A stretch of DNA of 64,000 nt from an uncultured Acidobacteriota bacterium (lineage in GTDB: Bacteria > Acidobacteriota > Thermoanaerobaculia > UBA5066 > Gp7-AA6): positions 32,401-96,400 of the forward strand of contig CAVXYF010000002.1 in assembly GCA_963765835.1 (NCBI GenBank), in the 5' to 3' direction. A model generated the notes under the pieces. That model was not told the DNA's origin. It was given only the letters and a program-made list of their open reading frames with translations, and searched no databases. A program made the position numbers and the translations under genes. Positions within the stretch are counted from its first letter, which is position 1, and every line of letters starts with the position of its first letter. This document shows positions 10,679 through 14,390 of the stretch, piece after piece.

Positions 10679-10721
10679 CCCCGCGAAAGTGGCGGAACTG
10701 GTAGACGCGCAGGTTTCAGGA
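10679..10721 (+). repeat. 43-bp direct repeat identical to the 5' half of tRNA-Leu(CAG), from the acceptor stem through the anticodon loop; a tRNA fragment marking an att site or island boundary
   Basis: cccgcgaaagtggcggaactggtagacgcgcaggtttcaggaa is identical to 14303-14345. The sequence after it lacks the anticodon-stem closure, so it is not a functional tRNA. Confidence 0.75.
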
Positions 10722-10863
10722 AAGCGCGCCTCGTTTCCCCCGAATCCCTAGAAAACCCAATAAAGACAGGCCTATCCCCTGTCTCGGGCGAGTGCTGTTT
10801 TCGTCGTCTAGAGAAGTCGAAAACCGTTGATATTCGTGCAGACCCGTCACACCAGCCGTCACA

Positions 10864-11202
10864 GTGGAAAGACGGTCGGACACCATGAGGCGACTTCGCC
10901 TCCGCCCCGTTCGTCTCGGTCCCGCGCCCGACCCAAATCGCCGGAAACGGCAGATCCCGCCCACCGCGCCGCTGGAGGAGCACATCGAGGACTTCGTCGG
11001 CTGGATGGTCGCCGGTGGGTTCTCGCCCGAGGAGGCACAGCATCGCGGCGAGTGGGTTCGTGAGTTTTACAGAGAGACCGGGGTCAGTTTCCTGACGCTC
11101 CCACCAGAGGAGATGCTCACTTTCATCGTAGAGTGCGACCGCCAGCTCGAGCAACTAGATCGCGAAGAGGCGGAGGACCTTGCGGAAGAGCCGGAGCACT
11201 GA
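10864..11202 (+). pseudogene. N-terminal (SAM-like / core-binding) fragment of a tyrosine recombinase/integrase
   Basis: LEEHIEDFVGWMVAGGFSPEEAQHRGEWVREFYRETG resembles the integrase N-terminal domain. It is separated by ~120 bp from the catalytic-domain ORF, so the integrase is split. Confidence 0.5.
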
Positions 11203-11321
11203 ATCTTTCGACTCTTGGCCGGGCAGCAGGTCCTGCTAAAGGTTAGATAGAGAAAGATACGGGAACGAACGAGGGGGATCGCAAGCGGATCCCCCCTCTT
11301 TTCGCTCCACGCTCCTTAAGG

Positions 11322-12158
11322 ATGAACCTCGCGGAAAGCACGCGCCAGCTCCGGGGGCAGTCGGCCCCGAGGAGGTTCTTCCGATGGCTGGTCCGTCGTG
11401 GTCACGCCAGCGTCGATCCGACGAAGGACCTCCCGCCGATGAAAGTCCGCTTCATGGAACGCATCCCCGTCTTGACGCGCGCGGAGATCGCCCGGCTTAC
11501 CCTTCGATGCCCGCCGGTGCCTGCGCCGAGAAAGGGACGGCGCGAGCCGATGGCGTTCTTCAGGCGCCGCGTGGAGCTGCACCATCTGGTCGAGGCGCGC
11601 GACCGCGCGCTGATCGCGCTCGTCCACGACATCCCGCTCCGAGGCGGGGAGCCGGCCCTCCTCGAGCTGCGCGACTACGACGAAGTCCGGGGTGAAATCG
11701 ACATCCGTGGCGGGAAATGGCAGTCGGAACCCGTCTCGTTCCCGGTGCTCGAGAGCACGAAAGCCGCGATGGCGCTTTACCTCGATGCCCTCCGGCGCTC
11801 GCGCTGGGCGGATACGTCACCCGCGCTCTTTCCGCCGCTCGGTGTCCGCCGGGCCGATACGAAAAGACCTGCCTCCGGGATCGGCTACTACGAGGTCTAC
11901 CGGATCCTCAAGAGGCGCATCGCGCGTGCGGGGATTGAGCCCAGGGGAAGAAGGCTCTCAGTTCACGTCTTTCGGTATACCCGCGCAACCCACTGGAAGG
12001 AGGAGGGCGTACCGATCGACGACATCTCAGTCCTTCTCCGTCACAAGAAGATCGAAACGACTCGCCTACATCCGGGCGGGCCGTTGAAGCGAACGAAGCG
12101 CCGGGCCGATTGCGCGAGCTTGTTTCGCAGGGTGAACTTCGAGATCCCGCCAGAGTAG
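11322..12158 (+). mobile_element. Tyrosine recombinase (phage-type integrase) catalytic-domain ORF; probably inactive, as it is truncated or split and the catalytic Tyr position reads His
   Basis: HVFRYTRATHWKEEGVPIDDISVLLRHKKIETTRLH matches integrase box II. The expected ...TT(Q/R)(I/L)Y reads TTRLH (CAT where TAT is expected). The lower-GC surroundings and the adjacent tRNA repeat support a mobile origin. Confidence 0.65.
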
Positions 12159-12286
12159 AATCGGGTCTTCAACGAAAGGAGGCCTCCGTTGAAAGCCCTT
12201 TTGTTGATGCCGGAAAACACCCCCACTTGCGGGGGATAACCACGAGGTCGCCCGGCGCCCGCGCCTCAATGCAAAAGTTTACTTCG

Positions 12287-12763
12287 CTAGTGAATCACGA
12301 TGGTTCCGTCGATCGAAGCTATGGAGGTGCCTGCGACGGGGCTAACCAGGGTCAAGTGACGCACTAGAGTGAAACTCCCGGTGGCGAGTGAGAAACGACC
12401 CGTCCCGCCTATAATGGTGTACGTTTCCAAAACAACTTCGGGGTCAGCCGTACCCTCTCCGGTAAACTCAGTGAAAACGCTGTCCCCGTTGGCCGCAACG
12501 AAGTGAGCAGACCCGATTGACGTATTGGTCAAGAGGTTGATCTCAACCTCATAAGTTACCGTGAATCGACCTAGATGTGTGGCCTCTCCTGTGCCGATCG
12601 CATCCACAAACAATGTCGGGAACTGCAGGTCAAAACTTTCAACGTTTTGGACGGAGCCTTTGAAGGGGACCTGTTGAGCTGCCGCGGTGGGGCCGACGAG
12701 GGCCGCTGTCAAGAGGATGGCTGCGATCTGCAAACCGAGCATGGATTTCCTGATACTTTTCAT
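12287..12763 (-). CDS. Small secreted protein of unknown function (island cargo)
   Basis: MKSIRKSMLGLQIAAILLTAALVGPTAAA is a signal peptide. The protein is Gly/Thr-rich and beta-rich, with no recognisable family. Confidence 0.45.
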   Translation of the reverse strand: MKSIRKSMLGLQIAAILLTAALVGPTAAAQQVPFKGSVQNVESFDLQFPTLFVDAIGTGEATHLGRFTVTYEVEINLLTNTSIGSAHFVAANGDSVFTEFTGEGTADPEVVLETYTIIGGTGRFSLATGSFTLVRHLTLVSPVAGTSIASIDGTIVIH

Positions 12764-12902
12764 ATTCGGATCCTTCCTTTCGAGTGGAATGAATCTTCCG
12801 ACGATTCTGAGGACGAAAACTCTCAAGCGCTATGTTGCGGGTTACGGAGCAACTTCCTGGTGACTGGCTCTTCAAATCGCCTCGTTTTGCCTTCCTTTCA
12901 AA

Positions 12903-12967
12903 GTGGCACAGACTTCAGTCTGTGAAGCCCGTACCGTTCACACAACACAGACTGAAGTCTGTGCCAC
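12903..12967. repeat. Perfect 22-bp inverted repeat with a 21-bp spacer
   Basis: GTGGCACAGACTTCAGTCTGTG (12903-12924) and its exact reverse complement CACAGACTGAAGTCTGTGCCAC (12946-12967). Each arm is itself near-palindromic. Confidence 0.8.
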
Positions 12968-14305
12968 CGGCAACTTCCTGACGATGGTGTTTTCTTTCGT
13001 ACATGGTCTCTATTCCTTGTGCGCCGAAAGGCTAGGGGTTTTCATTACCGCCTCCGGTCGCCTTCTCGCTCCCGAACGCCTCCCGATCGCGCTGATCCGC
13101 ATTCTACGTCCCTCTGTCGGGATCCCGGCTGTCAGGAGTCGGAAATGCGGTCGAGAGATGGCGTGGGTTCGCGGCACGGTGTGGCGCGGATGCCGCTTGG
13201 GTCGCCAGACCGACCCGGGCAGCTCTTAGAGTTCAACCTCCCTGCTTCGAATGTCGGATCATCCGGGTGCCGGCAGAGTTAGGATTCGCCCGTAAATGCT
13301 GCGCCGCAGCGTGCTCATCGCAACCCTGGTCGCCGGTTCGTGCGCACCGGTCCAAAAGATGTCCACCCCCCCTCCGCGCACCACGACAGAGCGGAAGCTT
13401 CTCCGGGTGACTCGAAATCCCAATGCAGTCAGGGGGTGCGAGTTCATCGGCAACGTTCGCCCCGCAACCGCTACTTCGAACCCGGTTTACTCAATGCGGC
13501 TCCGTACGGACGAGCTCGGGGGAACGTTCTTTTCATTGTGACGGAGAGGCCACACACCGGCGAGGCGTACCGGTGTAAGGCGCCTACCATCTCAAGCGAC
13601 GATCCCCCACCGGTTACCATCGCGGCGCCTCCATTGACCCCCACGCCGCGCGCCCGCTGATCTTCCCCGGGCGCGTCCCCCCGAGTAGAGAAAAAGGCTC
13701 TTCTCTCTACCCCGAGACCGGGTCAATACAGTCCGCGCTCCCGGGCGGCTCGACGAGGCCTTTCGGGAAGTGAACAGAAATCGAATCTCGCTCCCAGGCT
13801 CCAAACCGCGTGTGCATCCAGCGAGTTGCGCCCAAAATCAGGGGGTCGTTTATCAAGCGATTTGTCGAGCGCCAGGACCCGTATTTCGGGGTGTTCGGAA
13901 AGCCGCCGGTAGACGGGATCGGCTACCACCTCCCTGTTTGTCTAAGAGCCCTAGAGTCCTAGGGAACCTGTCACGCCAGAGGTCACAGGAAAGAGGCTCG
14001 CCTCGAGATCGCTAATGTTCCCAGAGGTATCAGAAGCAGGCGCGCAGTTCTCGGGCACTCGGACGAGAACGTGACCGACTCCTACCTGCAACCCTCGCTC
14101 GCCGACGTGCGCGATGCGGTCAACGCGCCGCGCGCTCGATCGACGGGCACATCCTGCCCGGCACGATTGCGTTTCCAGCGCGACCCGTCACAAAATCCGT
14201 CACGCTCACCGGCGAGAGCGCGGGAATCGCAGAGAGGAGCGTCTCGAATCCTCATGGTTAGCCCCTTGATTCCTCAGAGGCTTGCGCGTAATCTCCGGCC
14301 CTCCC

Positions 14306-14390
14306 GCGAAAGTGGCGGAACTGGTAGACGCGCAGGTTTCAGGAACCTGTGGGTAAAACCGTGGGGGTTCGAGTCCCCCCTTTCGCACCA
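14306..14390 (+). tRNA. tRNA-Leu (anticodon CAG), with an encoded CCA end
   Basis: GCGAAAGTGGCGGAACTGGTAGACGCGCAGGTTTCAGGAACCTGTGGGTAAAACCGTGGGGGTTCGAGTCCCCCCTTTCGCACCA. The 7-bp acceptor stem pairs GCGAAAG with CTTTCGC, the long variable arm is type II, and the anticodon-loop sequence TTCAGGA gives CAG. Confidence 0.9.

Follow-up and report, generated by a model that had tools for sequence, protein, structure and literature searches.

A decayed, probably composite integrative islet at the 5' half of a tRNA-Leu gene in an uncultured Thermoanaerobaculia bacterium

How does one half of a tRNA gene come to stand 3.6 kb upstream of the intact gene, and what is the DNA that separates the two? The question is posed by a stretch of 64,000 nucleotides (hereafter the window; contig CAVXYF010000002.1 of assembly GCA_963765835.1) from an uncultured acidobacterium of the Thermoanaerobaculia, in which the only tRNA gene detected by ARAGORN, a tRNA-Leu(CAG), is preceded by a second copy of its own 5' half. 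We propose that the intervening islet consists of the decayed remains of tyrosine-recombinase integrative DNA that entered tRNA-Leu(CAG) in the so-called reverse configuration, that these remains are probably composite, and that both of their integrase genes are dead; we give this reading a probability of roughly 0.85. The features discussed are collected in Table 1.

The two copies form an exact 43-bp direct repeat (10680-10722 and 14303-14345); a first-pass annotation of this DNA had placed the right copy correctly and the left copy one base too far upstream, at 10679-10721. Each copy comprises 3 nt of upstream sequence and nucleotides 1-40 of the tRNA, that is, the 5' strand of the acceptor stem, the D arm, the 5' strand of the anticodon stem (CAGGT), the 7-nt loop (TTCAGGA) and the first base of the 3' strand of the stem. 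The 43-bp sequence is matched twice in the window and in none of 100 dinucleotide-preserving shuffles. Related genomes were found by scanning one genome per species with the 581-amino-acid (aa) protein encoded next to the left copy (8862-10607, minus strand), a scan that returned metagenome-assembled genomes (MAGs) of Acidobacteriota/Thermoanaerobaculia. In three of them (L006, L007 and L008; genomes and loci are referred to by L numbers, proteins by P numbers) the site is empty: the gene of the 581-aa protein immediately adjoins an intact tRNA-Leu(CAG), the 43 bp are present in a single copy, and positions 10723-14302 of the window (3,580 bp) are extra. Aligned with L006, window 7029-10722 corresponds to L006 4755-1079 and window 14303-14652 to L006 1121-776, so that the borders are clean, with breakpoints at exactly 10722 and 14303. 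Since the 43 bp occur once in the relatives and the alignments break at these two positions, 10723-14302 is an insertion. The first-pass annotation, which had supposed an islet integrated at tRNA-Leu and looked to relatives with an empty site for comparison, is thus borne out by three genomes with a single 43-bp copy and no insert; the partly lower GC that it described is also there, with 52-58% across 12200-13000 against 65-70% in the flanks.

The duplicated part is the 5' half of the tRNA gene, and the stranded copy is the one that lies 3.6 kb upstream. This places the islet, at the anticodon loop, among the 5'-fragment islands, a class that is known but in the minority: of the 3,919 islands in the Islander collection, 159 have 5' fragments and 3,760 have 3' fragments (PMC4383910), and 5'-distal recombination is called "considerably less frequent" by Krupovic et al. 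(PMC6563490), who cite Zhao & Williams 2002 (J Bacteriol 184:859). Set beside the Islander criteria (PMC4383910), the locus has an intact tRNA gene with a cognate fragment in the same orientation, a 5' fragment that lies upstream, an insert of 3,580 bp within the range of 2-200 kb, and two tyrosine-recombinase genes inside, both of them pseudogenes, of which one (int1) scores above its Pfam cut-off and the other (int2) retains 72 codons. The trait recurs in relatives, in the form of a tRNA-Arg 5' half in L012 and of int2-family open reading frames (ORFs) that run into the 5' half of tRNA-Leu.

A duplication of the 5' half also raises the question of how the regenerated tRNA gene is transcribed. 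When the regions upstream of tRNA-Leu in the window, L006, L007, L008 and L015 are aligned, the columns of two promoter-like hexamers are conserved in all. The flank of the left copy is of the native type, resembling L006 and L007; that of the right copy is diverged, of a type common only to the islet of L015. This divergence suggests that the element brought a promoter-like region together with the 5' part of the tRNA, so that the working gene would be a chimera, and the native hexamers, if they act as a promoter, would now drive only the displaced 5' fragment. Entry would have taken place by site-specific recombination in the anticodon loop, with an element attachment site (attP) that carried a promoter and the tRNA 5' part. 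After integration the functional tRNA would consist of the 5' part of the element and the native 3' part; the promoter that came with the element would probably drive it, and the native one would be stranded together with the native 5' half.

The first of the two integrase genes, int1, lies in an ORF (11322-12158) that matches PF00589 (Phage_integrase) with 43.5 bits against a cut-off of 27.1. Its relatives in metagenomes (n=29) are about 355 aa long at full length, and protein alignments with them start about 80 residues in, without the first ~80 codons. The closest relative, L011, is 82% identical in DNA, and its homology begins at about 11325, with nothing alike upstream. What is lost includes the core-binding region, as the relatives carry PF02899 (SAM-like) and about 80 extra N-terminal residues that int1 of the window does not have. 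The first-pass annotation had described one integrase split into two ORFs, with a catalytic tyrosine codon changed to histidine (CAT where TAT was expected); neither description holds. The homology to full-length relatives starts at about 11325, and the upstream ORF is a separate conserved gene. As for the tyrosine, the window reads IETTRLHPG-GP against IETTRrYvRlGP in all relatives, and 12 of the 12 aligned relatives keep the Y. At the DNA level, gaaacga--ctcgccTACatccggg-cggg in the window stands against gaaacaacgcgcgccTACgtccgggccggc in L011, which reveals two deletions 16 nt apart, one of 2 nt (between 12060 and 12061) and one of 1 nt (between 12076 and 12077). The tyrosine codon, TAC at 12067-12069, is kept, out of frame, and is read as cTA CAT; the other frame gives RLAYIRAG. 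The apparent histidine is thus due to two small deletions that shift the frame, and a point mutation from tyrosine to histidine was rejected on the strength of the L011 alignment and the frame translations. The tyrosine of the relatives aligns with the catalytic Y279 of XerD (TTQIYTHV, structure 1a0p). The catalytic set R-K-H-R-H/W-Y is accordingly incomplete in frame in int1 of the window.

One might still imagine that int1 is a working gene whose indels are errors of assembly or are bypassed in translation. The -2 and -1 deletions together restore the frame, so that the remainder of the catalytic domain, with its residues R, K, HxxR and H, reads through, and MAG assemblies do carry indel errors. 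We find this hardly credible, however, as most of the core-binding domain (some 80 codons at the N-terminus) has given way to unrelated DNA with a terminator-like hairpin, and the window does not keep the tyrosine that is present in every aligned relative. Neither this loss nor that of 245 codons of int2 can be attributed to assembly error.

By similarity, int1 is Xer-like: its best NCBIfam matches are the XerA, XerC and XerD models, and its best matches in the PDB are XerC-like and XerD structures. The NCBIfam scores are 48-54 bits for the ORF of the window and 77-82 bits for a full-length relative, against equivalog cut-offs of 220-335. Like XerC/XerD, the relatives combine a SAM-like N-terminal domain with a Phage_integrase catalytic domain; unlike them, int1-family genes stand in mobile elements, as judged by att arms, and not at conserved chromosomal xer loci, and score below the equivalog cut-offs. 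A scan of IMG/VR found no relatives of int1, and a metagenome scan with the int1 alignment yielded six loci only, none of which (0 of 6) was a complete element.

The second integrase, int2, survives as a tail just before the tRNA gene, and was overlooked in the first-pass annotation, as were the element-borne promoter-like copy and the rarity of a 5'-half duplication, while the outline of that account stands. The frame that precedes the tRNA, read by eye, gives ...AVLGHSDENVTDSYLQPSLADVRDAVN. An exhaustive phmmer search with the fragment returned P0039 (E 1.8e-5) and P0040, and a search with P0039 gave a family of 40 proteins, the longest of 330-371 aa, most of them with PF00589. The exhaustive phmmer search alone identified the fragment, which has no Pfam match at E<=1. 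With tblastn, the family matched the window only at 14041-14124 and, in a different frame, at 14121-14258, and a hidden Markov model (HMM) of the family matched the window with E 3.6e-12; a comparison with L015 shows the 1-nt deletion near 14121 that separates the two frames. No relatives of int2 were found in the IMG/VR scan, and the 64-kb window contains no further recombinase of the int1 or int2 family. The loss of mobility that had been proposed is therefore upheld, by the two pseudogenes and by the lack of any other recombinase of either family in the 64 kb.

Six ORFs of the int2 family (P0039, P0051, P0069, P0074, P0075 and P0080) continue into PAKVAELVDAQ..., which is the translated 5' half of tRNA-Leu. 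It follows that int2 genes habitually lie just upstream of tRNA-Leu and in the same direction; a placement of this kind, pointing to the tRNA, is what would be expected of the integrase of a 5'-fragment element. The string ...PAKVAELVDAQ... in gene calls can serve as a marker of integrase-tRNA adjacency where context is lacking. In P0069 a partial 5' piece is followed, about 100 nt on, by a full tRNA-Leu start, which suggests that more nested or partial duplications exist elsewhere.

The ends of the islet carry a common motif. In the whole 64 kb there are exactly two matches to the bipartite site CCGTCAC-N5-CCGTCAC, where 0.01 would be expected, and the two are on the plus strand: the left site lies 122 nt past the left core, and the right site (CCGTCAC-AAAAT-CCGTCAC, 14185-14203) lies inside the int2 tail, 100 nt before the right core. 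The bipartite site is also found in the left arm of L012, and the int2 tail of L015 has the variant CCGTTACACCAGCCGTTAC, in which both half-sites are altered together. If the two ends of the islet are closed into a circle, they resemble a single attP in which putative arm-type sites flank a tRNA-derived core.

A second occurrence of the left arm, at a different tRNA, is provided by L012. There a chromosomal GGDEF/EAL gene is followed by GGGGCCGTAGCTCAGTTTGGATAGAGCGAAGGTTTCCTAAACCT, a tRNA-Arg(CCT)-like 5' half, which Rfam scores as a partial tRNA (25.2 bits; acceptor, D and anticodon arms, no T arm). The half ends in or just past the anticodon loop TTCCTAA, read as Arg(CCT), and is directly abutted by an arm that is 78-81% identical to window 10723-10870. 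After the arm come small ORFs, the partner gene described below, int1, an ORF for a 338-aa membrane protein, a conserved non-coding module and the right-arm segment, whose homology with the window stops at 14047/14048, the junction with the int2 tail. The anticodon arms of the two tRNAs are alike (CAGGT-TTCAGGA-ACCTG in Leu, AAGGT-TTCCTAA-ACCT in Arg), which would fit crossover in the loop, at a core that the two sites have in common. These data bear on the possibility that the repeat and the insert arose without site-specific recombination, by segmental duplication or illegitimate recombination, the integrases being there by coincidence. Neither an excision product nor an intact element has been directly observed, as this explanation would have it, but we hold it to be very improbable, given that the borders coincide with the anticodon loop of the tRNA, that the homologous arm of L012 abuts the loop of another tRNA, and that the islet has two integrase remnants, matching arm sites and clean empty sites.

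Between the left arm and int1 stands an apparently intact ORF of 112 aa, the partner gene, which we also considered as a candidate N-terminus of int1. The candidate was rejected: the ORF does not align with the N-termini of the relatives, has homologues of its own, and is a separate gene in L012, where a 110-aa homologue ends in an ATGA that overlaps the start of a full-length 358-aa int1 relative. The homologues (n=8) are 61-73% identical and none of the 8 has a Pfam domain; the partner ORF itself has no match in Pfam, PHROGs or NCBIfam. The protein has a basic N-terminal tail, three helices and an acidic C-terminus in an AlphaFold2 (AF2) model with a predicted local distance difference test score (pLDDT) of 74, and the model has no fold match in the PDB (best E 2.2). 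In L026 a partner homologue lies beside an att arm, about 220 nt from a tRNA fragment. The public gene calls for this part of the islet are a 239-aa "integrase" and a 105-aa hypothetical protein. The 122-nt filler between partner gene and int1, which holds the place of the missing start of int1, has no homology to the DNA of the relatives and no further copy in the window or the fetched loci.

How many elements does the islet then represent? Probably two. The first (E1) would have supplied the left arm, the partner gene, int1, the cargo slot, the conserved module and the piece of right arm, and the second (E2) the int2 tail, the promoter-like sequence and the 5' half. The simplest history would be that E1 and then E2 entered in tandem, and that a deletion took the middle att copy and most of E2, leaving the join at 14047/14048. 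With a single element, a tRNA-Leu-specific member of the int1/partner family, it would be natural that the two arms both carry the exact bipartite site, oriented alike and about equally far from the cores; the insertion would then have been made by int1, and the attP would have captured its P arm, promoter and 5' half from a chromosome already occupied by an int2 island, with the int2 tail as a fossil inside it. A single element would also account for the likeness of the window and L015, each of which has an int1 remnant, cargo, an int2 tail cut within about 7 codons of the same point and the tRNA, and for the partner/int1 module beside a tRNA fragment and an arm in L012 and L026. Yet the bipartite motif appears to be general in int2 tails of contigs without a known int1, as inferred from back-translated PVTKSVT, PSQQPSQ and PSHQPSH; the corresponding region of L012 has no int2 tail; and the points of truncation differ between the window and L015. 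We regard a single element as possible, and doubtful.

It is, to our mind, unlikely that int2 alone made the insertion, with the left arm and right end as its arms and the partner gene, int1 and cargo as passengers or later arrivals. The habit of int2-family genes of standing against the 5' end of tRNA-Leu, the arm motif inside the coding tail of int2 and the int2 type of the right junction speak in its favour. On the other hand, the left arm in L012 precedes partner gene and int1, with no int2 detectable in the 4.6 kb available, and in L026 the short distance of about 220 nt between partner gene and tRNA fragment is as expected of the recombination module of the element itself.

Synteny between L015 and the window extends to either side, and the islet of L015 has other lesions and no left fragment. 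It consists of an inverted N-terminal piece of int1, the last 86 codons of int1 with the tyrosine intact, a gene for a 192-aa secreted protein and the int2 tail; L015 6837-9547, which corresponds to window 6224-16424, is without the genes of the 792-aa and 581-aa proteins upstream of the tRNA and without the repeat array and the beta-helix gene downstream. Other relatives show the usual configuration, with a 3' fragment. L026 has the 3' fragment of another tRNA, inverted with respect to int1, beside the partner gene and a different arm motif (CAGGGACAG, twice). In L001 and L003 an int1-family integrase belongs to an element of more than 14 kb that has at its edge a 3' fragment (26 nt) of this tRNA-Leu (L001 6875-6900, L003 7647-7672) in the opposite orientation, and the chromosomal flank is syntenic with window 16857-22841. 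From this 3' fragment and the 5' fragment of the window it follows that related elements use the tRNA-Leu locus from both sides. A general rule that int1 relatives stand beside a tRNA 5' half was rejected, as L001-L005 and L019-L021 have no tRNA within 10 kb. The neighbourhood of tRNA-Leu as a whole is a variable region in the clade.

Several points weigh against the reading of the islet as decayed, probably composite remains in reverse configuration. The occurrence of the same bipartite site in the left arm of E1 and in the int2 tail fits one attP better, and the composite nature of the islet is thus not secure. L012 breaks off about 220 nt past the right-arm homology, before any regenerated tRNA could appear, and among the loci of either integrase family no element was recovered with both att ends on one contig. 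No tRNA fragment adjoins the integrase gene in L001, L003 and L019-L021. The promoter-like hexamers score below the threshold of the consensus scan. Lastly, the source is a MAG, and the small indels (-2, -1, -1 and a G-run) could in principle be errors of assembly.

Table 1. Features of the tRNA-Leu islet and its borders (window positions)
Feature	Start	End	Strand	Evidence
Native promoter-like hexamers TTGCTT (10644-10649), 17-nt spacer, TACGAT (10667-10672)	10644	10672	+	Alignment to the empty-site genes of L006, L007, L008
Displaced 5' fragment of tRNA-Leu (attL core)	10680	10722	+	Exact repeat; flank alignment to empty sites reaches 10722
Left arm with bipartite site CCGTCAC-ACCAG-CCGTCAC (10844-10862)	10723	10863	+	78-81% identity to L012 arm
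Partner ORF, 112 aa from GTG (105 aa from ATG at 10885), apparently intact	10864	11202	+	Eight homologues
Filler, 122 nt, in place of first ~240 nt of int1; terminator-like hairpin 11273-11295	11203	11324	+	Terminator scan
int1 pseudogene, Xer-like tyrosine recombinase	11325	12158	+	Pfam; alignment to ~355-aa relatives; L011 DNA alignment
Cargo gene, 158-aa signal-peptide protein, apparently intact, low GC	12287	12763	-	ORF list; GC profile
Perfect hairpin, 22-nt stem (GTGGCACAGACTTCAGTCTGTG / 21-nt loop / complement), non-coding	12903	12967		Inverted repeat
Probable frameshifted lipoprotein gene (lipobox LVAGSC), G-run ~13520	13296	13660	+	ORFs 13296-13541 and 13340-13660; frameshift by eye
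Conserved ~90-nt non-coding module (AGAGAAAAAGG..TCTCTAC..TCAATACAG), downstream of int1 across the family	13677	13767	+	Matches in relatives
Right-arm segment common with L012, degenerate bipartite site 13968-13986	13962	14047	+	71% identity to L012 12712-12796
int2 pseudogene, last ~72 codons (LGHSDENVTDSY...SNPHG, stop), 1-nt deletion ~14121	14041	14258	+	phmmer; tblastn; HMM
Element-borne promoter-like hexamers TTGATT (14268-14273), 17-nt spacer, TAATCT (14291-14296)	14268	14296	+	Same columns as native hexamers
Right repeat copy, putative element-supplied 5' part of functional tRNA (attR core)	14303	14345	+	Repeat; empty-site alignment
Intact tRNA-Leu(CAG), putative chimera of element-borne 5' part and native 3' part	14306	14390	+	ARAGORN; Rfam 56.7 bits

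Among the remaining parts of the islet, the conserved module is matched in L001, L011, L012, L013, L019, L022 and L023. In L011 it stands directly after the stop codon of int1, where a similar sequence is also found in L003, L013, L020 and L026. Unrelated cargo displaces it by 1.2-1.5 kb in the window and in L012, which outlines a cargo slot (window 12159-13686; L011 1323, L012 12244; the int1 stop regions of L003, L013, L015, L019-L024 and L026 were compared as well). In L001, L019, L022 and L023 its blast matches lie between a few hundred and about 2,000 nt beyond int1, on the downstream side. The DNA right after the int1 stop opens with a common hairpin-like motif (CGCTGGGCTAAC.. or CTGGGGCTAGGATGGG..) in L015, L019 and L021-L024, and the end of int1 in the window (CCAGAGTAGA) is almost repeated at the start of the module (CCCGAGTAGA).

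Within the slot, the small secreted-protein gene reported earlier is present as an ORF with a signal peptide. It is followed by two terminator-like hairpins (12235-12220 and 12198-12180); in Pfam the protein has a weak Dirigent-like match only, under the cut-off (E 0.0095), and its single-sequence AF2 model is all-beta and, with a pLDDT of 52, too poor to use. Between this gene and the lipoprotein-like ORF lies the perfect hairpin of Table 1, which has no second copy in the window or the fetched loci. The idea that non-coding pieces of the islet are genome-wide repeats (miniature inverted-repeat transposable elements, MITEs, or repetitive extragenic palindromes, REPs) was rejected, as the window holds no other copies. 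Searched against PHROGs, the islet proteins gave a match for the integrase only and none to phage structural or replication genes, and we do not class the islet as a prophage.

The DNA on the other side of the tRNA is unusual as well. Within 14370-15025 the final 21 nt of tRNA-Leu, from the T-loop to CCA, recur three more times (14554-14574, 14738-14758 and 14920-14940), each time closing a tandem unit of 182-184 bp. Besides the 21 nt, a unit has a stretch of about 100 nt, which comes in two variable types, and about 62 nt found in all units; L006 has one such unit. Each unit includes an inverted, imperfect copy of the T-arm region (e.g. 14359-14383 with 14447-14471). The array looks like a set of displaced 3' fragments (minimal, att-only relics) or the tandem duplication of one relic. 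Further on, a 157-aa ORF (16350-16823, plus strand) has a 26%-identical paralogue within the L003 element (L003 9044-9499), and is inverted and displaced with respect to the neighbouring gene of 188/208 aa when compared with its counterpart in L001/L003. Together with the NosD-like beta-helix gene (15070-16218) that is absent from L015, it suggests that element-derived or rearranged DNA lies 3' of the tRNA too.

How does the islet compare with known systems? It is closest to the islands with a 5' fragment ("reverse target orientation"), with which it shares an intact tRNA gene, an upstream 5' repeat, an anticodon-centred site, tyrosine integrase genes inside and absence from sister genomes; such islands have to come with a promoter and a tRNA 5' part of their own, as the islet appears to do. 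It differs from them in that both of its integrase genes are pseudogenes, in its length of 3.6 kb only, in its probably composite make-up and in its origin in uncultured Thermoanaerobaculia. Class A elements in the scheme of Williams 2002, of which phage HP1 and pSAM2 are types, have an attP at the anticodon loop that brings in the 3' part of the tRNA, so that the displaced 3' fragment comes to lie downstream. The islet resembles these in its tyrosine recombinase, in an anticodon stem-loop core with flanking arm-type sites and in an integrase gene beside attP, but it carries the 5' part, with the displaced copy upstream, and no phage integrase in INPHARED is more than 32% identical to int1 or int2.

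With both integrase genes dead, the islet has no means of excising itself. The att cores and the arm sites are still intact, and a related integrase acting in trans could therefore in principle move it; mobilisation in trans is a possibility that the islet would share with the cis-mobilizable elements (CIMEs) of the literature on streptococcal integrative and conjugative elements, which are att-flanked DNA segments without a working recombinase. Like CIMEs, the islet has perfect att cores and arm sites and no working integrase in cis; unlike theirs, its mobilisation in trans is only hypothetical, and the 64-kb window holds no intact helper element.

We thus see the islet as a real but fairly ordinary relic. 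It changes no general view; it enlarges, by one case from the Acidobacteriota, a small class of islands in which the 5' half of a tRNA gene is replaced. For annotation, it accounts for a 3.6-kb patch of low GC, the public calls of which describe a dead recombinase and its partner gene, and it implies that the sole tRNA-Leu(CAG) of the window is a chimera, probably run from foreign promoter DNA. The two uncharacterised integrase lineages and the rare partner protein are candidates for experiments on how target orientation is set. Tentatively, one might go further and speculate that the islet belongs to an undescribed family of elements of about 4-5 kb in Thermoanaerobaculia, in which close int1 relatives (62-76% identical) would use tRNA stem-loop sites in either orientation, taking the 3' part or the promoter and 5' part; the arm site would sit within the end of the coding region of a second integrase gene, and cargo would have a fixed place right after the integrase stop. 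If this were true, the family would offer a natural series of attP rebuilding, by which elements reverse their target orientation and switch from one tRNA to another (Leu, Arg).

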